A DNA stretch of 64,000 bases. Source: a virus. Lineage: Duplodnaviria > Caudoviricetes. Location of the stretch: positions 32,001 through 96,000 of the IMG/VR virus record IMGVR_UViG_3300011226_000001; one strand, given 5' to 3'. Under the pieces are notes generated by a model that saw only the letters and a list, made by a program, of their open reading frames with translations, ran no database searches and was not told the origin of the DNA. This document shows positions 8,286 to 36,700 of this stretch, one piece after another (positions within the stretch are counted from its first letter, which is position 1; every line of letters starts with the position of its first letter). The position numbers and the translations under genes are program-made.

Positions 8286-9314
8286 CTAGACGTGTAATAG
8301 TTGAGGCAGAGCCAGGCGCTTCTTAGTAGCTTTCAGCGCTTTTATATCAGGTCTGCTCGGTGCAAACGCTTCGATGTTACGTGGTAACGACGGAACGTTG
8401 CGGTCGATAGTTACAAGCTCCATTTGCAATTCAATATCCATAGCTGGTACTTGCATGGTCAGTGCTTTAGCCCAGCCGGCATTCGATTTGAGTTTACCAC
8501 TCAGCAGAGCGTCACGAATACCAAGTGCGCCTCCCCACTTATTGATAAGCTCAATCGAAGTCTTCTCGCCGAGTCCAGGAATACCAGGCACGTTATCAAC
8601 ACCGTCACCACACAAGGCAAGCATGTCGATAACACGGTCGGCAGGAACACCGAAGAAGCCTTTTGCTGTTTTGTAATCGAAGCGGCGTTCAGCAGCATTC
8701 GACTGCGCTTGCATGATAAGCTCAACGTTCTTGTGGTCAACAAGTTGCACGTAGTCTTTATCACGCGAATACAGCTTGATCAGGTAGTCGTGCTTGAATC
8801 GATCACACAACGTACCAACAAGGTCATCGCACTCGTAAGGCTTTTTAATGCCCACGTAGTAGCCTGCCATTTGCAGAATCTCTCTGGCGAGTGTCATCTG
8901 CGGACCAAGCTCTACGGTCTGAGTACGGTCACGGTTGCCTTTGTAGTCGCTGGACTTCTTGAACACCTGACGAATGTATTTCTTCTTGTGTTCAGCGGCC
9001 CATTGTTGAATCGCTCGATAGCGCCACGTATCGCTCGAACTTGGGTCGAAGCAGAACGCGAGATACGCACCGTTTGGATCTTTCGAGGCAATATCAATCA
9101 GGTCCTTGACCATATACATGAACTGACGCAGACCATAAGTCGGCGTACCGTCTTTTGCATACGTAGGACTTTTCTGCGTGGCGAAGTAAGCACGACACAT
9201 CCAGTTCGACGCATCAACAACGTGAAGCATCGGCTTCTTACCATACTTGATCTTCATCTTTGGCACAGAGCCAGGCGTCGGTGTTTTACCGATACTGGCA
9301 AACGATCTACTCAT
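8286..9314 (-). CDS. 5'-3' exonuclease / flap endonuclease (PolI N-terminal, T5 D15-like)
   Basis: VVDASN, YKGNR, YECDDLVGT, SRDKDYVQL, LCGDGVDNVPGIPGLGEKT (H3TH). Confidence 0.92.
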   Translation of the reverse strand: MSRSFASIGKTPTPGSVPKMKIKYGKKPMLHVVDASNWMCRAYFATQKSPTYAKDGTPTYGLRQFMYMVKDLIDIASKDPNGAYLAFCFDPSSSDTWRYRAIQQWAAEHKKKYIRQVFKKSSDYKGNRDRTQTVELGPQMTLAREILQMAGYYVGIKKPYECDDLVGTLCDRFKHDYLIKLYSRDKDYVQLVDHKNVELIMQAQSNAAERRFDYKTAKGFFGVPADRVIDMLALCGDGVDNVPGIPGLGEKTSIELINKWGGALGIRDALLSGKLKSNAGWAKALTMQVPAMDIELQMELVTIDRNVPSLPRNIEAFAPSRPDIKALKATKKRLALPQLLHV

Positions 9315-9811
9315 TGTTCCTCCGCGAATACGAGAGAACGACCTCGACCTCGCTCACGTAACGCTTTATGAAACCCTAAGCCGCAACAGAACATATCAAT
9401 CGTGTCTGTTTCGACCTGTGCAATCTTCGTCGTCTGAGCAAGCTCATGCAGATAGCTTTCGCCAGCACAGAAGTAGCGAGCCAGTGGGTCAACGACTGCG
9501 CCACCACGAACGAACTGAAAAACGACCTGACCCGTGAACGTGATTGTCCTGAGGTCAAGTTGCGGAGCTTGTGAATAGAGTTTGAAGTTGCGCTTAAAGA
9601 GGCGTTTCAGGGCGTAAGCAGCGCCGAGACCGTCCGTAAACAAAATGATTTGGCAATGTTCAGGAGCAGCCGATAGGAGAACTTTCAGACCTTCTTTGTT
9701 TGAAGAACGAACGAAAGCTGTATCGAAGGGAGGGACTCGTTTCGGCTGCTTGAAGAATATGCGATGCCTTGCGTTATTAGGACTTTCGTCCACTGAATTT
9801 GTTTCCATCAC
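9311..9811 (-). CDS. hypothetical protein
   Basis: ORF with overlapping start/stop coupling. Confidence 0.7.
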   Translation of the reverse strand: MMETNSVDESPNNARHRIFFKQPKRVPPFDTAFVRSSNKEGLKVLLSAAPEHCQIILFTDGLGAAYALKRLFKRNFKLYSQAPQLDLRTITFTGQVVFQFVRGGAVVDPLARYFCAGESYLHELAQTTKIAQVETDTIDMFCCGLGFHKALRERGRGRSLVFAEEQ

Positions 9812-12896: not shown

Positions 12897-15725
12897 TTAT
12901 TTCCGGCCAATCATTCGAGTACGAGCACTACCAAGAACACGACCACTAGGCAGAGCAACGCGCGAGCTACTAGCAGTGCCTGAGTTGAGTCGATGCGCTA
13001 CGCGACCCAAGCGATTCGGGTCACGGTTGATTGATACTTCTGGTGCTTTCGTCAGATACTCGTCGTACTCGCCACACTCGAAGCCATACACCATGAGTGC
13101 CATTGCTCGCCACAGGTCATCGGTTGCCCCTGTGTTCTTGATTACGCTGCGGCCTGTATCTTGCACAGTCTGCAATTGCATGATCAAGTGCTCTGTTGGT
13201 TTGTTCTCGAAGCACTGAGGATATTCGTCACCGTCGTATTTCAACGTGTCAGCAATCTTGTCAGCGTGAGTCATTCGCGGTAGACTAATGCGTGACGGCG
13301 TTGATTCGAACATCGTCTTAACTGTCCACATGTCCTGATACTTCAAGCTGTACTGGTCGGACTCCTCGATGGAATCCACTTTCAGTTTCGCATCCTGCAA
13401 CAACTTGAGTGACTGCCACTGGTCAGCAAGCATTACGCGAACGTTACGCGCTTTGCACAGCGGAATAAGCAGTTCATCAAATATCAAGGTGTAGTTCAGA
13501 GGGATGCCTGGCTTCGGTACGATCTCAACAAGACAATCGACACTGATAATCCCTGCATCGTCGCGTGAGCCTGTAACGAGTGCGAAGCTGTTGTTCGAGA
13601 AGCCTGCGTCAATTGCAAGTATCGACGCTTTGGTTGTCGTTGCCGCTTTGACGAGACTGCCATAGCGCTGGCGTTCACCGTCTTTGTGTCGAATGATGTG
13701 ATGGGCATATGTACACATCGAACGACCTTTCTCACGTATTGCATCCTGAATGAAGGTTGGTTGCGTGATGAATGGGTTAGCAGACAACGGTGCTTCTGCT
13801 CCGTAATCTCGGGCTGCACCTACCGGGTCACGACGAAACGCTTCTACAAGGAACTCAGAGGTACGCGGCATTGTCGGGTTCATCTTCCACGTAGGAGCAT
13901 GAATACCGAGCAGCTTCTCAGAGCCTACTGACATACGAAGCAATTCGTTAATCTTATCACGGGCGTGAACCGGACTACTGATGTTACAGAAATATCCCGT
14001 GAATGCTTCATCATAACCGGATTCGACTTGCCGCATCTCGGCAGAACGAACAGTTGCGAGTGAACGGTCAAGTGCACCGTAGACTGCACCAGCACTGACT
14101 TTGATCTTCTTGGATTGGGCGTCGTTGTCGAAATACGCCACTTCGTCGATTACCGCCAGTACGCGGGTTCGACCACGAAGAATACGACCATCAGGTCCGG
14201 CAGGGTAGATAACGAAGTTCCTGTGTCCGTACAGTACGAACGTGTCACGAATCTTCATCACTTCGATGCCGTAACGGCGCTCGTGTTTGCGAATCAAATC
14301 GTGATAGGCTTGGAACCACGGACTACCCATGATGTAGTTGAAGTACGGAGTCCACAATGTATCAGACGCTTGCTTCTGGGTAAGCGCAACGAACGTACCG
14401 TGCAATACGGTTGTGCTGTCGATGCCCAAGATACCAGTAGGCGACTGCGACATAAGCAGTCTGTGCGTCAGATAGGTAGAGATCATCGCTACTACAACTG
14501 ACTTACCGCTGTTGTGATGCAGAATGCCTGACGCAACGAATTGAGGCAGACCTTCCATCTGCAAGTCATACGTGACCTGCGGAGTACCGTCATCAACGGA
14601 CATTACTTCGATGTGAATCGAACGACACTGAGGCTGCTCAGTCAAGTCATAGACTAAGCTCCACATGCGCGTACCGTGAACGATTTGCGGCAAGTGTCCT
14701 GCGTTGATCAGAATCGACCACACCATTTGAAGTGCGTCAACATCATCGGTAACGTACTGCATCTTTTCGCCCAGAGGCACACTGCGTTCAGCGATATAAC
14801 GCAGCGCTTCTTCACGCGTAGACAGACCAGCATCATAGATACTTACAGGACGCTGTATCTTGCCCCATGAGTTCGTACCGAGTTTGACTTCGATACGCTC
14901 ACCGCCGCGCAGCTTCGACACTTTCTTAAAGCCTTGCTCAGTACGCACAGGGTGCTCATGAGTTGCTTCAATCCACATACCGTTTGCGAGCGTGACGACT
15001 TTGGTAGGCGCTACGTCTGACACATAGACTTGACTGACGTTCTTGATCTCACGGCCGTTGTGCGCGTTGAAGTTACGCTGCGGCTTGTGGAACCCAGGCA
15101 CATCATGACCAATCATCATGTGACCGATAGGCATAACACCACGAGAGGTCAGCACAGGAGTTGAGGCAATCACACAACGCTGTCCGGCGTTCACCGCCAG
15201 TTCGTTGTAGAAGTTCATCTCTTTCTTGCGAATCATCTCAGAACGACGAGAGCCGCAATGGGGGCACACACCATTGTGAAGCAGGTGTAAATGTGTCTCT
15301 ATTGCGGCTGTCGTTTCTTGAGGCTCGTGGTTTTCAGTGTACATCCATTGCAAGTTTGGTGAGCACTTAACGCAGATCTCACCAAACAAGCGCAGACCAA
15401 TCATGGCCTGTTCGAGATAAGGGTCGGCTTTTAAGAAGTCAGGACTCGTACACCACTCAAGGAAATTCTTGGCGCGTGGCATCGCACTATCATCAAACTT
15501 CAAATCGCGTGGCACAAGTGTGCGCTGCTCTAAAGCCCCTTCAACGAGATCGACAATGTTGACCTCGCCCTTTTCGAGAAAGTTAATCCCACTCGAACTA
15601 TTATCCGACAAGAAATCCATATCGGATGAGGCATCCGCCTGAACGTCATCACCAAGTAGTGCATCGAATGCAGCTATTCGCTTAGGACGTATCGTGAATG
15701 CTGGGCCCTTTTTAGGCTTGGCCAT
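12897..15725 (-). CDS. terL: terminase large subunit with intein
   Basis: Walker A AGQR|SGKS split by the intein; LRGRT; Walker B VIDE; ISSP; nuclease motifs AIDAG, DQWQS, TDDLWRA. Confidence 0.9.
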   Translation of the reverse strand: MAKPKKGPAFTIRPKRIAAFDALLGDDVQADASSDMDFLSDNSSSGINFLEKGEVNIVDLVEGALEQRTLVPRDLKFDDSAMPRAKNFLEWCTSPDFLKADPYLEQAMIGLRLFGEICVKCSPNLQWMYTENHEPQETTAAIETHLHLLHNGVCPHCGSRRSEMIRKKEMNFYNELAVNAGQRCVIASTPVLTSRGVMPIGHMMIGHDVPGFHKPQRNFNAHNGREIKNVSQVYVSDVAPTKVVTLANGMWIEATHEHPVRTEQGFKKVSKLRGGERIEVKLGTNSWGKIQRPVSIYDAGLSTREEALRYIAERSVPLGEKMQYVTDDVDALQMVWSILINAGHLPQIVHGTRMWSLVYDLTEQPQCRSIHIEVMSVDDGTPQVTYDLQMEGLPQFVASGILHHNSGKSVVVAMISTYLTHRLLMSQSPTGILGIDSTTVLHGTFVALTQKQASDTLWTPYFNYIMGSPWFQAYHDLIRKHERRYGIEVMKIRDTFVLYGHRNFVIYPAGPDGRILRGRTRVLAVIDEVAYFDNDAQSKKIKVSAGAVYGALDRSLATVRSAEMRQVESGYDEAFTGYFCNISSPVHARDKINELLRMSVGSEKLLGIHAPTWKMNPTMPRTSEFLVEAFRRDPVGAARDYGAEAPLSANPFITQPTFIQDAIREKGRSMCTYAHHIIRHKDGERQRYGSLVKAATTTKASILAIDAGFSNNSFALVTGSRDDAGIISVDCLVEIVPKPGIPLNYTLIFDELLIPLCKARNVRVMLADQWQSLKLLQDAKLKVDSIEESDQYSLKYQDMWTVKTMFESTPSRISLPRMTHADKIADTLKYDGDEYPQCFENKPTEHLIMQLQTVQDTGRSVIKNTGATDDLWRAMALMVYGFECGEYDEYLTKAPEVSINRDPNRLGRVAHRLNSGTASSSRVALPSGRVLGSARTRMIGRK
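14511..15176 (-). mobile_element. cis-splicing intein (222 aa) in the terminase Walker A motif
   Basis: Begins CVIASTPV; block B ATHEHP; block F TYDLQM; ends HHN followed by Ser. Confidence 0.92.
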
Positions 15726-22823: not shown

Positions 22824-24479
22824 TCAAAGACTTACCGGCAGCTTGTCGTCAGGTGATTTCAGATAAGCCTTAACTTTCGCGGCAGTACCATTAGCAGCAT
22901 ACTTGCCTGGCTCTTTCAGACCACATTTATACTCTGCAATCTCGGCCTTGATTTCTTTAATCTTGGCGACGAGTCCTGCACGTTCGAGTTTAGCCAGCTT
23001 ACGCACTTGACGGTCGAGAATGATCTTCGCATCGTCAACAGGAATCTTGCAGGCTTTCGCAAGAGCAGCATCAGGGTCTGCGGCTACCAGCACTTTAGGC
23101 AGCGCTTTGAGTAACTTGTCCATGTTGTCTACTGCCCACAAGTAAACCTCTTGCAGATGTAGGGCTTTCTCTGCTTTGGCCATCTTGTTTTTGAGCATCG
23201 CTATTTCTAGCTTAATGCGATACGCAACCCACGCTTTGAAGTAGTTCACATACGACAGATACATAAACTTGTTCGAGGCATCAGCACGGCGAACTGTCAC
23301 ACCCAGCGAGTAGTTGATCGCGGAGGTAACTTCACGCTGCACCTTAGTTGCGAGTTCATACAGCACATCGTCACTACCACGACACTTGATAGCGAACGCT
23401 GCGCCCCACGGACCGGCATCTTTGTTCTTCTTCGAGCTGGCGTTTGACGCAGACACAACACCAGGCCACTCTGCAATCTTCTCCAGCTTCTTGGTGATAG
23501 TTGCGTTGTTAGACATACCGCCTGGCACATACGTTTGAATCGTGATCGTCTTCGTCTTCTCGTCGATCTTCATCTGCGGTTCGTATGTGACTTTACCGCG
23601 GCCTGTAGACATGAGCGCGAGGAAGTCTTCATCAGAGCTTACGTCGAGACAGCCATACTCATGATTGACTTTGAGCGTGTCCGCGAGTTTCTTCGCGCTG
23701 TACTCTTTGCCATTGAGCATATCACACACGACTTTCGCAACTGACGTAAAGCTGAACGATGGGTTACCGCACTTAACGCCGTACGCAGGCGCTGGCACAC
23801 TACCGTTGAACAACATGTACGGTAACAGTGCAGGCAGATACAGAGGTATCTTCATATCGTTCGAGAAGTTGTCCACCATCGGTGTTACTTCGAGATAGTC
23901 AGGGTCGAGCAAGAAGCTACCCGCGAACTTACTCATTTTCGCTTCGGTATAACGCATCGCAGCAGCAGGCGCTACAGGGTCACCCCAGTTACCTTGACCC
24001 GCTACAGCAGGAGGCACTGTGTTTGCAATCGTTACCATCGCACCGTAGCAAGCAGCATCGCCGTGTGGGTGATACTTACCTAACGCATCACCAACAGTAC
24101 GCGCAGCTTTCTTGAAAGCACCGCCAGGGCGTAACCCCAAGTCTGACAGCGACCAGAGTAATGCACGGTGAACGGGCTTGAGGCCGTCACGATAGTCAGC
24201 GATAGCACGGTCCTCAACAACGTATGAACCGTACTGGAAGAGAGCGCGTCGCGTGTAGTCAGCAAGGTTCTCGTCACGAATGAGGGACTCGTCTTGACCA
24301 ATCATCGGGTACAGCGAAGTACCTGTAGCAGTCTCAACTACTTCGCCTTTCTTCTTTTTCTTTTTCGGCAAGTCATCGGCAGCTACTGCTTTCGATTTTG
24401 ACTTCAACTTAACCTTTGCAGGTTTCGCTACCGCAGTCGATTTCTTTTCGACTTTAACTTTCTTCGGCTTAACTGCCAT
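22824..24479 (-). CDS. gyrA: type IIA topoisomerase subunit A (GyrA/ParC-like), lacking the C-terminal pinwheel
   Basis: RAIADYRDGLKPVHR, KYHPHGD, GQGNWG, AAMRYTE (catalytic Tyr); start MAVKPKK with GGAGG RBS. Confidence 0.92.
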   Translation of the reverse strand: MAVKPKKVKVEKKSTAVAKPAKVKLKSKSKAVAADDLPKKKKKKGEVVETATGTSLYPMIGQDESLIRDENLADYTRRALFQYGSYVVEDRAIADYRDGLKPVHRALLWSLSDLGLRPGGAFKKAARTVGDALGKYHPHGDAACYGAMVTIANTVPPAVAGQGNWGDPVAPAAAMRYTEAKMSKFAGSFLLDPDYLEVTPMVDNFSNDMKIPLYLPALLPYMLFNGSVPAPAYGVKCGNPSFSFTSVAKVVCDMLNGKEYSAKKLADTLKVNHEYGCLDVSSDEDFLALMSTGRGKVTYEPQMKIDEKTKTITIQTYVPGGMSNNATITKKLEKIAEWPGVVSASNASSKKNKDAGPWGAAFAIKCRGSDDVLYELATKVQREVTSAINYSLGVTVRRADASNKFMYLSYVNYFKAWVAYRIKLEIAMLKNKMAKAEKALHLQEVYLWAVDNMDKLLKALPKVLVAADPDAALAKACKIPVDDAKIILDRQVRKLAKLERAGLVAKIKEIKAEIAEYKCGLKEPGKYAANGTAAKVKAYLKSPDDKLPVSL

Positions 24480-24480
24480 G

Positions 24481-25230
24481 TTATTCCTCCAGACCCAGCA
24501 GACGACGACGATGGACTGCATCTTCTGCAAGTACACCTCGGAAGAAACGCTCCTGCTCAACGCTAGTGAACGGGTTCACGCGAATCAAGCGGCGAGTCTT
24601 CGGATTGAATGAGATCGCTTCGAGCACGTCAGGTTCAACTTCACCCCAACCTTTTGCACGAACGATTTCTTTATCTTTTACAGCAGCAGGAGCTTTCGCT
24701 CGGCATTCTTCAAATGTCATGCCACCGTAGTGAATGCCTTTGTGCATCACGTTATACAGAGGCGCATCGACGATCCACACACGACCCTCTTTCATCAGGT
24801 CAGGCAGCAGTCGATAGATAACGCCGAGGAACAACGTTGCGATGTGGAATCCATCAGGGTCAGCATCCATCAGGAACAACAGGTTGCCGATACGCAGATT
24901 CTTCGTGCTCAACTTCGGCGCTTCTGCTTTCGGGTCTAACGATTTCAGGTCAGCACCCACAGACACTAACATGCCCTGCACTTCTTTGTGCTTGAGTACG
25001 TCAGCGAGACTTGCTTTCAGACCGTTAAGCGGCTTACCACCAGCGAGCATAACTTCCTGATAGTCAGGGTTACGTGCGTGTTTGGCCGTGTTATGCACAA
25101 CGACGCCATTACCTAGCACGAAGTTATGATGCACAGGCATAGTCGCATCGTACACGGGAACTGGTGTGTCTAACTTCACGCGACGGACAGCTTTAACTGT
25201 CAAATTCGTCGTAGTAGAAGATGATTCCAT
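24481..25230 (-). CDS. gyrB: GyrB/ParE C-terminal half fused to the C-intein
   Basis: AAGGAG RBS, then IntC ending VVVHN|TAKHAR; GKPLN, MDADPDGFHI, RAKGWGE. Confidence 0.92.
   Translation of the reverse strand: MESSSTTTNLTVKAVRRVKLDTPVPVYDATMPVHHNFVLGNGVVVHNTAKHARNPDYQEVMLAGGKPLNGLKASLADVLKHKEVQGMLVSVGADLKSLDPKAEAPKLSTKNLRIGNLLFLMDADPDGFHIATLFLGVIYRLLPDLMKEGRVWIVDAPLYNVMHKGIHYGGMTFEECRAKAPAAVKDKEIVRAKGWGEVEPDVLEAISFNPKTRRLIRVNPFTSVEQERFFRGVLAEDAVHRRRLLGLEE
25090..25230 (-). mobile_element. split intein, C-terminal fragment (47 aa)
   Basis: VKAVRRV...VYDATMPVHHNFVLGNGVVVHN, +1 residue Thr. Confidence 0.92.
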
Positions 25231-25279
25231 TTTAGCTGTCTCCTTCGACAACAATGATAATTTAATCACATCAGAATCA

Positions 25280-25441
25280 TTAGTCAGGATTCTGGTTTTG
25301 TTCGTTCATGCGCTCGTTTTCTTCACGCTCGCGTTCATCTTCTTCCTCCTGACGCTCACGATATACTCGTTTGTCAGGGTCTTCGATAGATGGTGATTTG
25401 GTGCTGTCAGTATCGACGCTTAACGAAACATAAATCTTCAT
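25280..25441 (-). CDS. unannotated 53-aa acidic/charged peptide
   Basis: AAGGA RBS; MKIYVSLSVDTDSTKSPSIEDPDKRVYRERQEEEDEREREENERMNEQNQNPD; double stop TAATGA. Confidence 0.6.
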   Translation of the reverse strand: MKIYVSLSVDTDSTKSPSIEDPDKRVYRERQEEEDEREREENERMNEQNQNPD

Positions 25442-25468
25442 AGCTATTCCTTATTTACAGAGGTCTGT

Positions 25469-26677
25469 ATGAGCCTAATAAAAGCACACAAACGCTTGAG
25501 CAAGAAGTTTAGCAAAGAGTTCAAATCCCTAATGCCAATCTTCTTTGAGCAACGCGACAAGAAACAATGCAACGCACTTGTACGCGACTCATACCCAAAA
25601 CTGTTTGACGCTATCGAACAGGCAACAGGTTGCACTGTCTTTAAATTAGACCCAGCAGCGTTTCACACCTTACTTACTGGTGAGGTTGCTGCACAGTGCC
25701 ACAATAAAGGTTGCACGAATATGTGTGGCTACGATAAAGGCAAACGCAAGTACAAAGAGTTTTGCTCCAAGCAATGTGCCAACGCTAGCGGTGCTATCAA
25801 AGAACGGCGCGAAGCAACAATGCTCAAAAAGTACGGCGTTAAAAATGCGTATGCGGCACCAGAGATTCAAGCTAAGATTGCAAGCAAGAATATCGAGAAG
25901 TACGGAACAGCCAACGCATCGTCAAGCGACAAGGTAAAGCAGAAGCGCCGCAAGACTTTTCAAAAACGCTACGGCATCAATTCTCCTATGGAGAGTTCAG
26001 AGTTTCGTGGACGTCTGAAAGATTCCATACGTACTCGCTACGGTGTAGACAACGTAGCACAAAGTCCTGTAGTTCAAGCGAAGACAGAAGCAACGTGTAT
26101 TGAACGTTACGGTGTCTCTCGCGTTATGCACGACCCTGAGATCGCAGCGTACACACATAAGCGGTCAGTAGAAGGCAGCATGATGAAGTACGGTGTACCG
26201 AATGCGATGCTTCATCCAGACGTGCTAGCCAGGTGGCAAGACTCTCTGGGACGCAGAACTGAAATGACAATCTGCGGCAAGACAGTCTACGTTCAGGGCT
26301 ATGAGCGTTTCGTATTCGAACGTCTGCACCAACTCAAACCGTTTAAATCAATTACCACTCGTATGCCGCAGTCAGCAATGGTGCCTTATACTTTCAAAGG
26401 CAAGCAACGCAGATATGTTCCTGACGCTGCAATCAAACTGCCTGACGGCTCAGTACGCGTGGTCGAGGTAAAGAGCTGGTTCACGCTACGCAACGAAGCA
26501 AACGTAGAGAAGTTTAAGGCGGCAACCAAACACTTCAACGCTCGTGGTATAGACTTCGTAGTTATCATAGCGGAACCAGAATACGATTACATTCGCGTAA
26601 TAGTTAACCCGAAGAAAGGGCTCAAGTCACTTGTACGCACGGCACATCTTTTCAGTAGTGGCCGTCGAACTTGGTAA
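25469..26677 (+). CDS. free-standing putative homing endonuclease (Zn motif, 23-aa YG repeats, PD-(D/E)XK domain)
   Basis: GAGG RBS; CHNKGC..FCSKQC; six (K/R)YG repeats; RYVPDAAI..VVEVKS; the only convincing plus-strand gene. Confidence 0.8.
   Translation: MSLIKAHKRLSKKFSKEFKSLMPIFFEQRDKKQCNALVRDSYPKLFDAIEQATGCTVFKLDPAAFHTLLTGEVAAQCHNKGCTNMCGYDKGKRKYKEFCSKQCANASGAIKERREATMLKKYGVKNAYAAPEIQAKIASKNIEKYGTANASSSDKVKQKRRKTFQKRYGINSPMESSEFRGRLKDSIRTRYGVDNVAQSPVVQAKTEATCIERYGVSRVMHDPEIAAYTHKRSVEGSMMKYGVPNAMLHPDVLARWQDSLGRRTEMTICGKTVYVQGYERFVFERLHQLKPFKSITTRMPQSAMVPYTFKGKQRRYVPDAAIKLPDGSVRVVEVKSWFTLRNEANVEKFKAATKHFNARGIDFVVIIAEPEYDYIRVIVNPKKGLKSLVRTAHLFSSGRRTW
25802..26226 (+). repeat. six ~23-aa protein repeats centred on (K/R)YG
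   Basis: KKYGVKN, EKYGTAN, KRYGINS, TRYGVDN, ERYGVSR, MKYGVPN. Confidence 0.8.
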
Positions 26678-28391
26678 GCTGATCACCTGGCTGTAGGTCG
26701 GCGGCTGCAACATAGCGGCTGCCGTCTACTAACCACGGATGGTCTAACGTACATACATAAACAGTACCGTCAGACATTTCAACTTCCACCAGCTCGTCAA
26801 CATATTTGGTCAGACGCGGCTCGTCAAACACATGACGCTCGAACGACTGCTTTTCAATGTTGAAACTAATCCCTTCAAATACTTCACCCTGCTTTGTGCG
26901 CTCGGCAAGTTCTTCGAATGAGAAGACGCTACCATCTGCCAATCGAACAGGCGTGGTACCAATGAAACAACCACCAGCAGAGTCGCCTTCTACAACGATA
27001 AGCTCACGCTCATGAGGCTTACACTTGAGCGCAGAGATCAGGTCAGCAGGGAGTGAGTTGCCTTTCAGCTTCTTCTTCGTGTCTGCCATTGACTTAACAA
27101 CAGCGGACAGTTCTTCACGCCCCTTGTTCATCGCTTCGGCGCGTTTGATGATCGTCGTTGCGACTTTCTTATTGTCCTTGAAGTATTTCACGAATGCTTC
27201 TTTCAGCATCTCGTATACTTCTTTCTCAACACGACTCGCCAGCTTGTCTTTAACCTGTGAGGTGTATTGAGCGCCGTGCATACGCCAGTCGAACATACCT
27301 GTCAGGCCGATAAGCAAATCTTCTTGTTTGAAGTTCTGCTTCTTCTTGCCTTTGCCTTTCGATTCTTTCATGAAAGGTTTGATTGCTTCGAACAGCGCGT
27401 CACGGAAACCTACAACGTGCCACCCGCCGTCAATTGTCGGGCTGGTGTTAACGAAACTGAGGAAGTTGTCAGTGTCAGGATGATCTGTCCACGTCAGCGC
27501 AGCGGTGATGTTGTCGTTCTTGAAGATGAACGGTTTGCCAACTGAACCGAGTTCGCGTTCTTCAACCATCGTCTTAACAACGTGCGCGAGATCTTTCTTG
27601 TTATGGAAAGTGAACTCTTTGCGCTTGCCTTTCTTGATCAACGTCAGGCGAACTTCGAGGCCCGGGTTGAGCATAGACATGTTACGCAGCCAGCGGCCTA
27701 AATGATCAGGAAGCGGAGCGGCGTGACGATAGTTCTTCGGCAGCTTCTTACCACGCATAACGTCAGCAGACACAACAGTCTGGTCGAGCGTCCACGCAAC
27801 AATCGTACCATACTTGGTGTGCTTCTTATCTTTTAAGAGAGCCATAACATCTTTATCGACGCCTTTGACTTTCTTAGGGTCTTTACCAGATTGGGCTTCA
27901 CCTTTCTGCCACATCTGATACGCACAACCGCCTTTATACATTGACCAGACACGAAGTTGGTCAGACACTGCGTTCAATGCTGCAACGCCTACACCGTGAG
28001 TACCAGCAGAGGTCTTATATGCTTTATCATCGAACTTACCGCCGGCGTGTGTGCGACTGAACGCTGCGGTCATGATCGTTTCTTTGGTGCCGTTCTTCAA
28101 TTTCTTGAAGTCTGTCGGGATACCACCAGCATGGTCAGCTACAACGTTCAGGTCGTTGTCGTAGTCGATGACAACTTCGATGACTTTGTTCCTGTTGGCG
28201 ATGTACTCGTCATAGGCGTTATCCACCGCCTCTTTGACTGTACGGTATGCCATATCAGTACCGCGTTCACCTAAGTACATCCCTGGGTTGGCACGAAGTC
28301 CCGATAGGCCTTCATGAATGACGAAGCCTTCCTGCTCACCGCCGTCACCCGTTTTCTTTTTAACTTTTGCAGCTTTTGGCGTCTTAGCCAT
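26652..28391 (-). CDS. gyrB: GyrB/ParE N-terminal half (GHKL ATPase to the start of TOPRIM) fused to the N-intein
   Basis: RANPGMYLG, EAVDNAYDE, DHAGGIP, HAGGKF, GTHGVG, VEGDSAGG|CF. Confidence 0.93.
   Translation of the reverse strand: MAKTPKAAKVKKKTGDGGEQEGFVIHEGLSGLRANPGMYLGERGTDMAYRTVKEAVDNAYDEYIANRNKVIEVVIDYDNDLNVVADHAGGIPTDFKKLKNGTKETIMTAAFSRTHAGGKFDDKAYKTSAGTHGVGVAALNAVSDQLRVWSMYKGGCAYQMWQKGEAQSGKDPKKVKGVDKDVMALLKDKKHTKYGTIVAWTLDQTVVSADVMRGKKLPKNYRHAAPLPDHLGRWLRNMSMLNPGLEVRLTLIKKGKRKEFTFHNKKDLAHVVKTMVEERELGSVGKPFIFKNDNITAALTWTDHPDTDNFLSFVNTSPTIDGGWHVVGFRDALFEAIKPFMKESKGKGKKKQNFKQEDLLIGLTGMFDWRMHGAQYTSQVKDKLASRVEKEVYEMLKEAFVKYFKDNKKVATTIIKRAEAMNKGREELSAVVKSMADTKKKLKGNSLPADLISALKCKPHERELIVVEGDSAGGCFIGTTPVRLADGSVFSFEELAERTKQGEVFEGISFNIEKQSFERHVFDEPRLTKYVDELVEVEMSDGTVYVCTLDHPWLVDGSRYVAAADLQPGDQLTKFDGHY
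26655..26969 (-). mobile_element. split intein, N-terminal fragment (105 aa)
   Basis: CFIGTTPVRLADG (block A), CTLDHPW (block B), AADLQPGDQL, then stop. Confidence 0.92.
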
Positions 28392-28421
28392 TGTAAGTTT
28401 CTCCGAATGAAAACACGATTG

Positions 28422-29420
28422 TTATTTACACTTACGTTTGTCGTAGGCGTCAACAATCTGTTCAACCGTATACTTGCCGTAATAGTCGTCAAATATATCG
28501 CCATGCTTTTTCTCAAACGCTGCAATGCGCTTGAGCAAGTCGTCCAACTCAATATGATTCATACTGTGCTTAATCATATTAGTTCTTGCAGCCATCAATT
28601 TCAAATTGCACGGATGACAAATAACAGACAGAGCTACAGGCTGCTTGCGCGGCACATAGTCTTTTCCGTTGAACTCGTAATAACCGTTCGTCTTCGAGAA
28701 CTGATGATCAAGATGAATGTCTTTCGACTCACCAGACAACCATCTGTCTATACGATGCGTACCCTCAGGGAACAAGTGTGGGAAACGCGATACCACCATG
28801 TACGTGAAGCGGTGAACGATTCGTTTGTATTGAACGAACGTTATACCGCACAGGCTTCGGTCTAAGTTATTCTCCCATGCTTGAATCGCAGTCTTTGAGA
28901 AAAGGATTGTACCTTTCTTTATCTTGTGGCGTCTACCATGCTTCGTTGCTTCGGCTATCGCTTCTGCATGGGTCCGTCGTTCAATGCCGACTGACTCAAA
29001 GTAACGAGACAGCATACAGGTCTTAAACGGAAGCCCTGTCTTCTCACGTATGACCTCTGCTATTGAGCTTCTGGTCATTCCCTTATCCTGATACATGCTC
29101 ACCAGCAATGAGTGGTTCTTCGCACAAAACGCATTGGCGTCTTCGTCACTCATAGTCTTTTTCTTTCGTGTCAGAGAAAACGCGTTAAGAGCTTTCTGCA
29201 CCGACGAGTGAGGTATACCTGTCTTCTCGGTAATCCCTCTAAGAGTCAATTGCTGGTCAACATACAGTTCAGTGAGCAACTGGCGCAAGGCTTTATTCTG
29301 CACCAGTGCCCATCCACCGTTTGTCTGTTTCTTGTAGGTTAGACCTTTCTTTTTGAGAATGTCGCCCACATTACCTACAGACCTCGGAATTGCAACATAC
29401 ATAAAACACCCCGAATACAT
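28422..29420 (-). CDS. putative HNH homing endonuclease with N-terminal HTH repeats
   Basis: LYVDQQLTLRGITEKTGIP and MYQDKGMTRSSIAE HTH-like segments; HLDHQFS..HPCNLKLM..TNMIKH. Confidence 0.65.
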   Translation of the reverse strand: MYSGCFMYVAIPRSVGNVGDILKKKGLTYKKQTNGGWALVQNKALRQLLTELYVDQQLTLRGITEKTGIPHSSVQKALNAFSLTRKKKTMSDEDANAFCAKNHSLLVSMYQDKGMTRSSIAEVIREKTGLPFKTCMLSRYFESVGIERRTHAEAIAEATKHGRRHKIKKGTILFSKTAIQAWENNLDRSLCGITFVQYKRIVHRFTYMVVSRFPHLFPEGTHRIDRWLSGESKDIHLDHQFSKTNGYYEFNGKDYVPRKQPVALSVICHPCNLKLMAARTNMIKHSMNHIELDDLLKRIAAFEKKHGDIFDDYYGKYTVEQIVDAYDKRKCK

Positions 29421-31001: not shown

Positions 31002-31217
31002 GGTAGATCCTTACTTTATATTTGATGCGGCGTTTTCACCGCTGGATGAAAAGATAAATTTGTTCAGGTTTGATTTCCTGTAGACGTACATTATTATAAT
31101 CAACATACGTCTGCAAGAAATTTTGAAACTTTTTACAAAAATATTCGAAAGTTTTTATCGAATATTTGCCCCTCGCTCATTCATCAGAACTAGAGGGGCG
31201 CGCCGGATCAGAAGCTA

Positions 31218-32018
31218 TTACTCGTCGTCTTCGTCTTCGTCTTCATCGTCGAAGTCTTCGTCGTCTTCATCTTCGTCTTCGTCGTCTTCGTCGTCTTCAC
31301 CGCCGAAGTGTTCTTCGCAGAGTTCGCGCAGTTCATCTTCGTCCATTTTCTTCGCCTTTTTAGCGGCGGCCAGCTTGTGTTCGATTACCAGGGCGCGAAG
31401 TTCGTCTTCGTCGAGGGCGTCGAGATCGAGGTCTTCATCATCCTCGTCTTCATCTTCGTCCTCGTCTTCATCTTCGTCTTCGTCGTCCTCTTCTTCATCG
31501 TCGCCGTCTTCGTCGTCTTCGTCGTCCTCTTCTTCATCATCAGAGTCTTCGTCGTCTTCGTCGTCGTCGCCGTCTTCATCTTCGTCGTCGGACTCTTCGT
31601 CCTCGTCTTCGTCCTCTTCTTCTTCGTCTTCGTCCTCTTCGGACTCGCCGCCCAGGTTGTCGTTCAGCAGTTCGCGCAGTTCGTCTTCATCCAGCGCTTT
31701 AGCTTTCTTAGCGGTAGACAGTTTGGCTTTGACAACCGCTTCGCGCAGGGTGTCTTCGTCAACGCCGGAAATGTCCAATTCTTCTTCGTCCTTCACAGCA
31801 GCGACGATTTCAGCGACGGTAGGTGCTTTGGCCTTTTTGCCTTTAGCAGCTTTACCGCCTTTGTCAGCTTTAACAACTTTACCACCAGACACGGTCAGAC
31901 CGGCAGATGCGAGCAGCGCAGCGATTTCTTTGTCGGTTGCGTTCTCTACTACGACACCCAGCATTTTAGCCAGAACCAGAGATGCGGTGTTAACGGTTGC
32001 TTTAGCAGCTTTAGCCAT
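31218..32018 (-). CDS. highly acidic protein with two DEDELRE helical modules
   Basis: Long D/E tracts, strong codon bias. Confidence 0.8.
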   Translation of the reverse strand: MAKAAKATVNTASLVLAKMLGVVVENATDKEIAALLASAGLTVSGGKVVKADKGGKAAKGKKAKAPTVAEIVAAVKDEEELDISGVDEDTLREAVVKAKLSTAKKAKALDEDELRELLNDNLGGESEEDEDEEEEDEDEDEESDDEDEDGDDDEDDEDSDDEEEDDEDDEDGDDEEEDDEDEDEDEDEDEDEDDEDLDLDALDEDELRALVIEHKLAAAKKAKKMDEDELRELCEEHFGGEDDEDDEDEDEDDEDFDDEDEDEDDE

Positions 32019-32064
32019 GATTTGTTTTTCCTGTTTGATTAGAAGCGACGTTGCTTCAATTAAG

Positions 32065-32134
32065 ATTTACAGATTTCGAGAGACAGGCAGCGAGAACATT
32101 TTATCTCGCTGCGTACTTAATATTTACAGATTTC
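32065..32134 (-). promoter_or_regulatory. tandem GAAATCTGTAAAT motifs (candidate late promoter)
   Basis: Two identical 13-mers (32065-32077, 32122-32134) flanking a hairpin; the same 13-mer occurs at 22811. Confidence 0.5.
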
Positions 32135-32167
32135 AGAAAGTCAGTTAAAAGTCTTCGTCAGACTTTA

Positions 32168-32817: not shown

Positions 32818-33645
32818 CTAAAAGCTATGATTAATCAAATCTAAACAAATCGTGAGAAGCGACTCGCAGAATAATTCTTCGTACTCGTCATCTTCTTCCA
32901 GTGCTTCGATATCATCGACAACTGCAACACGCAGCCAGTCGAATGAGTAGCAGATGTTACGCGCACCACTGCCCATGTGAGCCGCTTTCTTATGCGCTTC
33001 CCACACATGCTTCAACATAGTGCGAGACACTTCGAACTGCGGGTCTTTCAAGAACAGGTTAACGTTCGCTTCGATGTAGGCTTTAAGCGCTTCACGCAGC
33101 GTTTCACCCTTAGGTGTATCTGCGTTAATGGCAGAGCAGTACATTGCGACAGAGCGATACAGCGAAGGCTGTTTAATCACGGTGTCAATCTTGTTCTGCT
33201 CGGCGAGTGCGCGAGCAACCTTGTTCGTTTCACGGTTTACAGTACCGTGTGCGAGTTGCATAACGACATTGTGGTAGTGACTAACACCAGCACACATTAT
33301 CATATGCAGAGCAAACGGAAGCGGGTTCGCTGCTTCGTGCTTACTCTTTACAGATTCGAGTTCAGCTTTCACGGTGCGAAGTTCTTGTGTCTGCTCATTG
33401 CAGAATCCAACAAGTTCTTTGATACGCTCGTCACGTAAAGCAATGGTATCGGTGTGCAGACGGTCTTGACGTTGAAGTGCAACACGCAGGATAGTGTTAC
33501 TGCGTGTCTCATTCTCTAAAACGTTTTCCACGTCTTTCTTATCGCCAACAGCCTCCGCCAGTTCGGCAGTAAGCTCACGAATTTTATCGTCACGGCTACT
33601 AAGCATCTGCGCGATGTTAGCTCCGTGGTCTACTTCTTGTGTCAT
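32818..33645 (-). CDS. hypothetical coiled-coil protein
   Basis: 275-aa ORF. Confidence 0.75.
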   Translation of the reverse strand: MTQEVDHGANIAQMLSSRDDKIRELTAELAEAVGDKKDVENVLENETRSNTILRVALQRQDRLHTDTIALRDERIKELVGFCNEQTQELRTVKAELESVKSKHEAANPLPFALHMIMCAGVSHYHNVVMQLAHGTVNRETNKVARALAEQNKIDTVIKQPSLYRSVAMYCSAINADTPKGETLREALKAYIEANVNLFLKDPQFEVSRTMLKHVWEAHKKAAHMGSGARNICYSFDWLRVAVVDDIEALEEDDEYEELFCESLLTICLDLINHSF

Positions 33646-33662
33646 GTTTACAGATCCCCAGG

Positions 33663-33689
33663 AAAAGTAAGCGGCCCTTTCGAGCCGCT
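33663..33689 (-). terminator. intrinsic terminator
   Basis: AGCGGCTC-GAAA-GGGCCGCT hairpin then TACTTTT. Confidence 0.7.
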
Positions 33690-33702
33690 CAATCAGACGT
33701 TA

Positions 33703-36700
33703 TTACTCGTCTTCGCCGTCTTCGTCTTCGTTCTCTTCGGATTCTTCTTCCTGAGGAGAACACAGTACCAGAACAGTCAAGTCACCGCCATTGTCGAACG
33801 TTGCAGCAGCCAGACCACCAGACAGAATAGACAGCGGCAGGTCGCGGGTGTCGAGAGCACTTGCTACTTCGATCACGTCTTCGGCATCGTCGAAGTTTGC
33901 AGCGTCAGCGGCAGAGTAAGACTGTACGCCTTCCATAGTGCGCAGCGCGGTCAGTGCATCGTACAGGCGGTCGTTGTTCAGCAGTGCTGCGGATTCCAGA
34001 GTGAAGCCTGCGTACACTTTGATACCTTCAACGGTACCGGCCAGAGCGATAACACGATTAACAGCGGCTTGCACCAGCAGAGAAACATCGGAGTCACCCC
34101 AGAAGCCAGGGACAGCAACGTTCATCACAGTGGTGTGCAGCGCGACGTGTGCAGTGTCAACCTGAACAGGACGAACGCGAGACTTAGCGTTGTACAGGCT
34201 TGCAATCGGCAGATGGTCACCCTGCATTTCTGCGAACTGATCTTCGTCGAGATAACCCAGCTCACTCGCTTGCTGCATTTCTTCGTCGTCGATGAAGTCA
34301 CCAACTACGAGACCCGCTTCGCTTGGGTCCATGCCTTCTTCGATACGGCCGGCGTACAGAGAAGCAGAGATTTCTTCTTCCAGAGTTTGCTCAAGGCTTT
34401 CAGCCCAGGCAGCAACGTCGAACGTTTTCGGGTCTGCCATGAAGCGCGTAGTGCTGGTGCGCTCAATGATATCCAGCAGAGACTGCGCTGGCAGGTGCAT
34501 CGCGCCAGGCGCTTTACCAGCTTTGCCCAGGTTGAACGGGTAGCGGTAGTTGAAGCCGTTAATGTCAGACAGTTCGCTTTCAATCGGCGAGTACGTGTTG
34601 CCGTCGGTCAGAGTGAAGTTGATGATCAGCGTCTGGTCCATATCGACAGTCAGCATCGGGCCAACGCGATTTGTGGTGTCAACAGTTTTGACGAATTTCA
34701 GATGATCGTTTTCAGCAACAGCACTAACGTCTGCTTCTTCTGCTTCGTCTTCGCTCTCTTCGGCGTCTTCTTCTTCGTCTTCATCCTGATCGGCAACTTC
34801 GTCGTCGTTCAGGAACGCAGGGAGTACGGCCAGCAGCGCGTCAACAAAGTCCAGGTCTTCACCGTCTGCAACTTCGGACAGGTCGATACCGTAGTTAGTT
34901 GCGATTTCTTCGACAGCAGCAAAGTCGTCTTCGCTACCACCGTTGAGGATCGCTTCGATCATGTCGTCAACAGTTTCGCTTTCGTCAACGAGGATGCCCA
35001 GGCTTTCAGCTACGTGCTGCACGGTCGCTTCGTCGTACTGAGACAGCAGAGCGCGGAGTTCGTCTTCGTTAGAAGTCACGTCAGTGTCTTCTTCAACAGC
35101 GATAGGGCTGGTCTGGCTTTGAATGCGGGTGAACGCTTTCATTACCTGAACGATAGACATTGCAGATACATCTTCGCCCATCGCTTCAACAGCGGCGGCA
35201 CGTTGTTCAGCAGTCAGCACACCGCCGGTGAACTGGAAGTAGTCAAGCGGATCAGTTACTGCATCGATCTGGTCTTGCACTTCGTCGGTTTCTTCTTCGG
35301 ACTCTTCCTCTTCTTCGGAGTCTTCATCTTCCTCCTCAGAATCGTCTTCGTCCTCTTCTTCTTCGCCGTCTTCTTCTTCGTCGGCGTCGTCTTCTTCTTC
35401 GTCTTCATCAGACGGCAGAGCTGCCAGCATGTTCGGGCAGTCGATTTCGTGCTCTTGCAGAGCGCCAACGAAGGTGTTCAGAGTTTCGATCATCTCTTCT
35501 TCGGTCGCACCTTCAACCAGCTCCAGCAGTTTGGCAGTCAGAGTCTCGACAGTATCAGACTTCATGACTTTCAGATCCTGGGTGCGAACAAGAATTTTCA
35601 GACCGGTACGATCCAGTTCTTCGGAGACCAGAACAGAAGCGAGGAATTGAACAGCGTCGAAGCCTTCGCTTTCTTCGTCGTCTTCTTCTTCGTCTTCTGC
35701 GTCATCATCGCTCTGACCGGCATCGCCTTTTTCCAGCCAGATTGCTTGCTCGGTGTCGAACGACTCACGAATACCGTCTTCGTTCATTGCAGTCAGATCA
35801 TAACCAATCGCTTCGAGCGCTTCGGTCATTTGCTCAACAGACAGCGTTTCAGCTTTGTAGCCGAACAGGTCAGTGCCGGTCGCAACTTCTTCTTCGTCAC
35901 CCGCTTCCTGCTGATCAACAACTTCGTCTTCTGCGTCGAAGTCTTCGCTCAGGTTTACAGGCGTTGCGTTGGTAGGTTGTTTCACGTTCAGTTCTCCGTT
36001 ATTTGGAATTGCAGCAACGATCTCGCTGCTAATAGTTTGCATGATGAAAGTACGCACAGCACCAGACAGCACAGTAACAGGGTTAGCTGGCAACGCGCTG
36101 TAGTCAATTACCGCTTTATCGAGAGCACCATCAGTTTCATCAATGCTTGTGATATTTACAGTTTGCAGAGCTTCCACCTGAGCGGCGAGTGCCTGAATGT
36201 AAGTACCTGCTTTGCTTTCTTCAACAATCGAGATTGAGTGAATCCCAAACTCGGCTGCCAAGTCTGACAGATCGCTTTCGCCTGCACTAAACAGTGCGAG
36301 AGACAGACTACCGTGCATCTCAGATACTGCTTTATTTACAGTATATGAAACGATGACAGCATCACCTTCACCCACTTTGATGCGCTCGTCAATGCGAGTC
36401 GGCACACCGTTGTTAGGGTGCAGGATGTAGTACGCGCTGTTCTGATCGGTAGACTGACCAGAGGCACGTTCGATCAGGCTCGGCAGACGATCCATTACCT
36501 TGCCTTCAATCTGCTTTTCGTGCAGTTGCTCGTCGGCGCTCATATACGAGAAGCGACCATGAGCATTCAGTGAAGTCAGGACGACGATTGTGCATTTGTT
36601 CACACGACCGCTTTCGGCAGAATTAGCACGACGCTGTTCGTCGCTGATCTGCTTTTGTGTTTCGGAACCAAATGATGATGCAGCGCCCAGATTGTTATTT

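Follow-up and report, generated by a model that had tools for sequence, protein, structure and literature searches.

The DNA analysed here, a stretch of 64,000 nucleotides (nt) that we call the window, covers positions 32,001 to 96,000 of the IMG/VR virus record IMGVR_UViG_3300011226_000001 (Duplodnaviria; Caudoviricetes), a complete 268-kb record with direct terminal repeats. Among named phages, the closest are jumbo phages of Erwinia and Dickeya in the genus Alexandravirus, with 82-89% nt identity over the topoisomerase region. Almost all genes of the window are carried on the minus strand. Our subject is a plus-strand gene lodged, together with the two halves of a split intein, in the gene for the large subunit of topoisomerase II; its product resembles a free-standing homing endonuclease, and we refer to it as the homing-endonuclease gene (HEG). 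An earlier note on this DNA had singled it out as the sole convincing plus-strand gene, which agrees with our results for the other long plus-strand open reading frames (ORFs) tested (31123..32148, 33625..36237 and 8424..9371). Because none of these has a PHROG match and the minus-strand ORFs overlapping them match strongly, we take them to be shadow frames.

The host gene appears as two minus-strand ORFs, an N-half (26652..28391) with the GHKL ATPase and transducer domains and a C-half (24481..25230) with the Toprim domain and the GyrB C-terminal domain. Erwinia phage pEa_SNUABM_1 has an uninterrupted orthologue (675 amino acids, aa) with which both halves are collinear, and the original order and orientation are kept. 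In the protein alignment, the orthologue runs unbroken through EGDSAGG-TAKHARN. At the same point the window has EGDSAGG|CFIGTT..., continuing for 105 aa to DGHY and a stop, and then a methionine that opens a stretch of 47 aa ending in VVVHN|TAKHARN. The break is exact, and both fusions (at the end of the N-half and at the start of the C-half) are in frame. The N-extein matches Pfam DNA_gyraseB and HATPase_c as well as PHROG 543 (E 2e-97). The C-extein opens with TAKHARN..., includes the rest of the Toprim domain with its DADPDG motif and the GyrB C-terminal domain, and matches Pfam Toprim and DNA_gyraseB_C and PHROG 543. A scan of the complete 268-kb genome found this one GyrB-like gene and no second copy. 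The earlier note had named the host gene 'gyrB'; the homology to GyrB stands, but the gene encodes a phage topoisomerase II large subunit and is not bacterial gyrB. The boundaries of the inserted cassette (Table 1) follow from the protein alignment to the uninterrupted orthologue and coordinate arithmetic. In the closest relative, L005, the cassette has the same length and is 90% identical at the nt level.

Table 1. Parts of the interrupted topoisomerase gene and candidate promoter elements, in window coordinates
Feature	Position	Strand	Remarks
Whole inserted cassette (IntC, leader, 53-aa ORF, HEG, IntN)	25090..26969	.	1,880 bp; missing from Alexandravirus alleles
N-extein, topoisomerase II large subunit residues 1-474	26970..28391	-	GHKL ATPase + transducer, to Toprim EGDSAGG
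IntN (N-terminal intein half), 105 aa plus stop	26652..26969	-	Cys1 (CFIGTTPV), block B TLDH, end ...LTKFDGHY*
Free-standing HEG, 402 aa	25469..26677	+	Assigned from profiles, homologue alignment and model
26-nt convergent overlap, HEG 3' end (..GRRTW*) / IntN 3' end (..TKFDGHY*)	26652..26677	.	
CTGTAAAT motif, candidate phage promoter element	25453..25460	- (coding strand)	Just inside the cassette
53-aa acidic ORF	25280..25441	-	Between HEG start and IntC leader
IntC gene leader, conserved	25231..25279	-	AAATTATCATTGTTGTCGAAGGAGACAGCTAAA ahead of ATG; strong Shine-Dalgarno
IntC (C-terminal intein half), 47 aa (MESSSTTTNLTVKAVRRVKL...VYDATMPVHHNFVLGNGVVVHN), then Thr+1	25090..25230	-	True start: ATG at 25230
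C-extein, topoisomerase II large subunit residues 475-676 + stop	24481..25089	-	
(G)AAAtCTGTAAATA copies, candidate phage promoter element	756, 7777, 10444, 18531, 22817, 25459, 32071, 32128, 36160, 36340	-	

The two inserted peptides bear the residues of an intein: Cys1, T-L-D-H in block B, VYDATMPVHHNF in block F, a terminal VVVHN and Thr+1. Cys1, TxxH, block F, the terminal HN and Thr/Ser+1 are kept in 8/8 loci and in a contiguous mini-intein (discussed below), and the ratio of non-synonymous to synonymous substitution rates (dN/dS) against L005 is 0.07 for IntN and 0.02 for IntC. Profile matches are modest. Pfam Intein_splicing, whose cut-off is 35.8 bits, scores 23.1 bits on the IntC half (E 6.9e-5) and 28.4 bits in the genome scan, and the PDB sequence matches of IntN to the Pho RadA and NrdJ-1 inteins are weak (E 0.01-0.04). 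These profile matches stay under the curated thresholds because each half is short. Judged by these residues, the pair fits a class 1 intein (HINT) split at the canonical site, and trans-splicing is predicted. The HEG lies between intein block B/N4 and block F, which is the canonical endonuclease position. In a cellular GyrB fragment (P0128), an intein occupies the same EGDSAGG|S site and has a large insert where the split falls here; therefore the HEG occupies the usual place of a nested endonuclease domain.

The HEG itself runs towards IntN, and the two genes overlap tail to tail as the earlier note had described. It starts with an ATG that has GAGG 7 nt upstream, and its dN/dS of 0.12 against L005 shows it to be under purifying selection. 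Four parts can be distinguished: a helical N domain (residues 1-70), a four-cysteine knuckle (77-103), six DUF7487 repeats (~101-262) and a TnsA-like PD-(D/E)xK domain (262-393). An AlphaFold model based on 20 homologues has a mean pLDDT of 88.9. In this model the N domain has five helices, and C77, C82, C99 and C103, all invariant among the 20 homologues, lie in a small beta knuckle, in keeping with the zinc motif proposed earlier. The six (K/R)YG repeats of the earlier note are found at residues 122, 145, 168, 191, 214 and 241 (spacings 23, 23, 23, 23 and 27). Each unit is modelled as one long helix followed by a (K/R)YG-x-N turn, and Pfam DUF7487 (PF24308) matches at 127.6 bits against a cut-off of 27 (E 8.9e-37). 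In other proteins, the partners of the DUF7487 array include Vsr, DUF559, MTES_1575 and further domains. Such modularity would be expected of a DNA-binding module of homing endonucleases, which the array may, by analogy, be. At E values up to 10, Pfam searches with three parts of the HEG gave no NUMOD, helix-turn-helix or Vsr family, and no family at all for the N-terminal 99 aa.

The C-terminal domain is the putative catalytic part. Its motif, QGYE(279)...VPD(319)...E(333)VK(335)S, has E279, D319, E333 and K335 invariant in 20 sequences. Pfam Tn7_TnsA-like_N (PF08722) matches residues 304-366 at 37.4 bits (39.1 bits on the isolated domain), over a cut-off of 26.5, and PHROGs 3339 and 12131 ('homing endonuclease') match the protein. 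The model places a restriction-endonuclease fold over the domain, and its closest structure is TnsA 1t0f_A (Z 8.9, root-mean-square deviation (rmsd) 4.0 A over 123 residues), a first rank given by VIA-align and not by Foldseek. The latter, run with the whole HEG model against the PDB, returned nothing at E <= 0.001, its best matches being PD-(D/E)xK proteins at E ~0.01-0.1. Further down the VIA-align ranking come Hjc (Z 6.6), tRNA-splicing endonucleases, Vsr 1cw0_A (5.7), I-Ssp6803I (5.3) and I-Bth0305I 3r3p_B (5.0). At Z 5.0-5.7 the matches to the Vsr-type structures show a common superfold only, and the isolated domain has no Vsr or DUF559 Pfam match at E up to 10. The HEG sequence gives chance-level matches in the PDB (E >0.3) and no LAGLIDADG match. 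In short, the profile and structure comparisons that the earlier note had proposed returned a TnsA-like fold and DUF7487, in line with its call of a PD-(D/E)XK rather than a LAGLIDADG enzyme. On the basis of profile and model, we regard the domain as a TnsA-like PD-(D/E)xK nuclease, for which metal-dependent DNA cleavage is predicted.

The association of this nuclease with the split intein is not confined to the window. A search of 5.8 billion proteins gave 16 full-length relatives, and the genomic contexts of seven homologues were looked up, with HEG identities of 92, 66, 58, 52, 44, 40 and 29% to that of the window. Co-occurrence with conserved host genes had been set beforehand as a point on which the earlier interpretation could fail, and it passed. 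In 7/7 contexts, a GyrB-like N-half with IntN at its end and a C-half starting with IntC flank the HEG, which is antisense to them, and the split site is the same in all seven (DSAGG|C ... VVHN|T/S). With the window included, HEG and host-gene halves are on opposite strands in 8/8 loci, and the HEG overlaps the 3' end of IntN by 24-36 nt in 7/8, the exception being L012, where a 50-aa ORF lies in between. Within the contexts looked up, the 402-aa subfamily was found solely inside this split intein. More distant members of the family are free-standing genes beside capsid, tail or other conserved genes, an arrangement typical of phage HEGs. Diverged jumbo phages have thus kept the fractured arrangement as a unit, and close relatives differ in whether they carry it.

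The more distant family members were screened at 80 IMG/VR loci with a pattern search for adjacent IntC-like ORF starts, which gave three matches. One (L018) is of the known type. Another (L094:591-4441, plus strand) is a real GyrB-like gene fractured at a different site, after the Toprim domain; its split intein holds a gene for a DUF7487 + MTES_1575-type nuclease on the same strand as the host gene. The DUF7487 repeat family therefore also occurs in classical Dassa-type fractured topoisomerase genes. The third, an FtsK-like gene (L031), could not be confirmed as fractured, since the ORF on the other side showed no IntN. Among the loci with the same cassette as the window, a 286-kb contig (L011, 1-9354) is of separate interest. 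Its GyrB-like N-half carries a second, contiguous intein bearing an HNH domain and its topoisomerase A-subunit gene carries a LAGLIDADG intein, which makes three inteins in one enzyme.

The uninterrupted state of the host gene is well represented. All 51 related phage records found, including Erwinia Alexandravirus, have an empty site. Compared with pEa_SNUABM_1 (L001), the window exteins are 94% (N-extein, last 300 residues) and 100% (C-extein) identical at the aa level. Within ~500 nt of the junction, most 60-nt bins of the flanks are 93-100% identical to the empty allele at the nt level, and the 30 nt on either side of the junction hold three synonymous differences.

A third allele was found by searching with the IntN region. 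P0126 (contig L014:2334-4826, plus strand) is a one-piece topoisomerase II large subunit of 830 aa with a 153-aa mini-intein at the EGDSAGG|T site. Its 12-residue linker (...ILTQ-RGVYGGFEATSW-VHEVRTVKL...) lies exactly where the window has the IntN stop and the IntC start. Judged by the alignment, this allele is the un-split counterpart of the window element. The earlier note had proposed that the HEG invaded a mini-intein at the linker between the splicing domains and split it. The endonuclease position at the linker is borne out by the exact break and a mini-intein of this kind exists; the invasion may have come first, although the intein tree resolves too little to be rooted.

The history may also have run in reverse, with the split intein and HEG being older. 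The L014 mini-intein would then have arisen later, when the HEG was lost and IntN became fused in frame to IntC; what the element does today would be the same, and only the phrase 'invaded a mini-intein and split it' would be wrong. Eight split loci with a HEG, spread over very deep host divergence (exteins down to ~40% identity), stand against a single mini-intein allele, which moreover sits on a long branch inside the intein tree and not outside it. For the T4 MobA cassette, which interrupts the same host gene, endonuclease loss with re-fusion is also on record (bioRxiv 10.1101/2022.08.31.505936). Yet an antisense gene cannot be removed by simple decay, as a precise, frame-restoring deletion of ~1.4 kb would be needed; the intein tree has too little resolution to be rooted; and the single contiguous allele comes from a search of proteins of 318-1014 aa. 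Weighing these points, we consider the reverse order possible but on the unlikely side.

Comparisons between phages suggest that the cassette has moved. Between the window and L006, the exteins are 49% and 60% identical, while IntN reaches 77%, IntC 85% and the HEG 66%. Against L014, which has no HEG, the order is the opposite: the exteins are 82% and 87% identical, IntN 63% and IntC 70%. In sequence, the intein/HEG element is thus more conserved between phages than the host gene. Maximum-likelihood trees agree with this picture. The extein tree places the window clade with L013 (95/91), and the HEG tree places the window and L005 with L006 (100/98). The HEG data reject a window-L005-L013 clade (approximately unbiased test, p-AU 0.011), and with the intein data the matching extein clade is likewise rejected (p-AU 0.0145). 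Neither the HEG tree nor the intein tree agrees with that of the host gene, which indicates horizontal spread, with intein and endonuclease apparently moving together between phage lineages. The composite mobile element envisaged by the earlier note fits both the empty sites of close relatives and these tests.

The cassette also contains candidate expression signals. A minus-strand leader ahead of IntC (AAATTAT...GTCGAAGGAGA...ATG) is recognisable in most compared loci despite deep protein divergence. The block AAATTAT..GAAGGAGA..ATG is present in the window, L005, L006, L008 and L009 and partly in L011 and L012, across a protein divergence of 40-60%; in L013 just the GAAGGGGA part is left. 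The window has 10 copies of the octamer CTGTAAAT, all of them on the minus strand, where 2.1 would be expected (~fivefold). The copies are often intergenic and extend to the consensus (G)AAAtCTGTAAATA, a candidate phage promoter element that we take to be reminiscent of T4 late promoters. The copy just inside the cassette has an equivalently placed copy in L008. Between the CTGTAAATA motif and the conserved IntC leader, the window and L005 alone have an extra insert of ~175 nt with the 53-aa ORF, which is highly acidic, has an AAGGA ribosome-binding site and shows a dN/dS of 0.16 against L005; it has no PHROG match and no family match. The cassette would supply its own translation signals, and probably a promoter, for the C-half, as do the loci of Dassa et al. 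(PMC2677866).

Taken together, we consider it quite probable that the cassette is a composite selfish element, inserted in the Toprim motif of the sole topoisomerase II large-subunit gene of the phage, that combines homing with trans-splicing. The evidence in silico consists of the anatomy, the exact break, the intact splicing and nuclease residues under purifying selection, the linkage of HEG and intein, the empty and mini-intein alleles, and the tree conflict. The observation of the earlier note is confirmed, and its interpretation is supported in silico. We infer from this evidence the cleavage, its target site, homing, trans-splicing and the promoter roles, as follows. In a mixed infection, the Zn knuckle and the six helix-(K/R)YG repeats of the endonuclease would bind an uninterrupted allele, and its TnsA-like PD-(D/E)xK domain would cut at or near the EGDSAGG|TAK codons. 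Recombinational repair would then copy the whole cassette into the break. As the insertion destroys the target, a carrier would be immune. The host gene would henceforth be expressed as two proteins, the C-half from translation signals (and probably a promoter) borne by the cassette. IntN and IntC would associate and trans-splice, rebuilding the 676-aa enzyme with the junction peptide …EGDSAGGTAKHAR…; because the enzyme is rebuilt, the insertion would cost the phage little.

Several results weigh against this account. A scan of 24400-28700 for sigma-70 promoters and intrinsic terminators gave nothing above shuffled expectation, and no plus-strand promoter for the HEG. No co-conversion tract is visible at 60-nt bins in the flanks of the window compared with the empty allele. 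The intein tree (145 columns) is poorly resolved and does not reject a clade of window, L005 and L014 (p-AU 0.485); because it keeps this clade, the statement that the window intein is nearer to L006 than to the mini-intein is made on identity alone. L013, whose branch is long and whose HEG is enlarged to 489 aa, is part of both rejected clades, and the tested clades were named after the identity matrix had been seen. A DNA-binding role of the repeat array would follow by analogy and from its fusion to several different nuclease domains. The array (residues 70-262) modelled alone (pLDDT 88.8, pTM 0.50) found no structural match in pdb_via_wide, the best being coiled coils at Z 3.5, a null that says little because the array was modelled as beads on a string.

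The location of the cut deserves a separate look, since homing may operate with a cut away from the insertion point, in the flanking topoisomerase sequence or a neighbouring gene, and long repair tracts dragging the cassette in. In free-standing phage HEGs such as the T4 Seg and Mob enzymes (SegF, MobE), the cut often lies away from the place of insertion; the HEG family is otherwise intergenic. MobA, in turn, nicks within the region that its cassette replaces (bioRxiv 10.1101/2022.08.31.505936). A distant cut is nevertheless improbable in our view. The flanks of the window are close to the empty alleles over the ~500 nt on both sides, as described above, and a one-sided site would therefore persist in the carrier and be cut; a junction-spanning site interrupted by the cassette is the simplest source of immunity. 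Moreover, I-Bth0305I, of a related class, cuts beside its insertion site (PMC3239194).

We find it very improbable that the element is a relic, that is, that homing has been lost, inheritance is vertical and the protein is kept for another job (degradation or exclusion of competitor or host DNA, or processing of phage DNA). It is true that large phages also employ TnsA-like nucleases for structural or packaging purposes, the T4 gp4-type head completion protein being one example (PMC7824862), and that PHROG 218 ('head closure') weakly matches the HEG (E 1.2e-6). Purifying selection likewise says that the protein is used without specifying the purpose, and the missing co-conversion tract would suit a relic. 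However, in the contexts looked up the 402-aa subfamily was confined to this split intein, the empty-site relatives (88% nt identity) manage without the HEG, and the tree conflict, with an element more alike between phages than its host gene, calls for horizontal movement.

A further-reaching proposal, in which the opposite orientation of the HEG is itself a working design, seems rather doubtful to us. The 3' overlap and convergent transcription would throttle the endonuclease through antisense RNA or transcriptional collision, the cassette would supply a promoter and a ribosome-binding site for the C-half, the module would move as a unit between distant jumbo phages, and the array would be a programmable-looking reader of long DNA targets.

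The surroundings of the locus show other signs of variation. Directly upstream of the topoisomerase gene is a minus-strand ORF of 332 aa (28422..29420) with a weak match to an HNH-endonuclease family (phrog_8446, E 1e-7) and no Pfam match. The Alexandravirus relatives lack this ORF and have an unrelated 247-aa gene in its place, and its sole relative in the phage database is in Burkholderia phage BcepSaruman (27% identity). It may encode a further mobile nuclease of the free-standing kind next to this host gene. In Erwinia phage pEa_SNUABM_3, an extra 85-aa ORF (L002:3077-3334, minus strand) lies between the genes for the large and medium topoisomerase subunits; it is present in some Alexandravirus relatives and absent in others, another small indel polymorphism at the locus. 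Further away in the window, a 942-aa minus-strand ORF (12897..15725) has a weak Intein_splicing match at residues 226-405 (E 3e-4, under the cut-off); the phage may carry a contiguous intein in this gene as well. One more weak Intein_splicing match lies outside the window (G000:C1:15820-15945).

The locus supplies evidence hitherto wanting for the fractured-gene model, namely on how endonucleases enter inteins and how split inteins originate. It also bears on what counts as a fractured gene, since the endonuclease can be encoded on the strand opposite to its host gene; this does away with in-frame compatibility as a requirement and raises questions of antisense regulation. To the homing endonucleases it adds an uncharacterised architecture, in which a Zn knuckle is followed by six 23-aa repeats and a TnsA-like nuclease. 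The intein, a natural split one of the Cys1/Thr+1 type (105 + 47 aa) for which several diverged orthologues exist, is in addition a candidate source of orthogonal protein-ligation tools.

Among known systems, the closest are the fractured genes of Dassa, London, Stoddard, Schueler-Furman & Pietrokovski (2009, PMC2677866). These consist of three coding regions on one strand, with GIY-YIG or Vsr-like nucleases, and topoisomerase is not among their eight host enzymes. The window shares with them a broken enzyme gene, split-intein halves with a free-standing endonuclease gene in between, an occurrence mainly in phages, a split between blocks N4 and C2, and control elements borne by the insert. In contrast, the HEG here is antisense, with a conserved 3' overlap of 24-36 nt, and its nuclease combines DUF7487 with a TnsA-like PD-(D/E)xK domain. 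The locus is hence a fractured gene with an opposite-strand, 3'-overlapping DUF7487/TnsA-like HEG, and it departs from the published same-strand definition. Our literature search, whose coverage was incomplete, returned nothing on an antisense endonuclease gene in a split intein and nothing mentioning DUF7487. In the cultured Pseudomonas jumbo phage MIJ3, an essential replication gene (PolB) is likewise fractured by a split intein, in which blocks A, B, F and G were recognised (PMC6892783). The host gene there is a different one, the nuclease is of the HNH type, and the part of that source available describes no antisense arrangement.

At the level of the enzyme, I-Bth0305I and the Vsr-like (EDxHD) enzymes also join a restriction-endonuclease-fold domain to N-terminal modular DNA-binding repeats and occur in phage introns, in fractured genes and as free-standing genes (PMC3239194). 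In the window, however, the domain is TnsA-like by Pfam and not Vsr, and the repeats are DUF7487 and not NUMOD3. TnsA of Tn7 (PDB 1t0f, 1f1z) is the best structural and Pfam match and has the same E...D...ExK active-site pattern. It is a transposase subunit working with TnsB and TnsC, whereas the TnsA-like domain here shares one protein with a Zn knuckle and a repeat array and has no transposon partners nearby. I-Ssp6803I (PDB 2ost), a homing endonuclease with the same PD-(D/E)xK catalytic superfamily fold, is a weak structural match (Z 5.3, rmsd 5.0) and differs in being a small, tetrameric, intron-encoded enzyme without a repeat array.

The T4 MobA/gene 60 cassette, finally, interrupts the same host gene in the same Toprim domain, separating two metal-binding motifs and leaving the gene in two ORFs. 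It too is a recurrent, recent and independent insertion with closely related empty alleles (bioRxiv 10.1101/2022.08.31.505936). The same preprint, which cites Bonocora et al. 2011, mentions one metagenomic Topo2L split by Hint/VSR/HintC. The T4 solution is different in that MobA is an HNH enzyme encoded on the same strand and no intein is involved; the halves associate non-covalently through added tails, and a 50-nt translational bypass is used. Alongside the MobA/gene 60 cassette, the element described here makes the Toprim region of phage topoisomerase II a repeated target of selfish elements.

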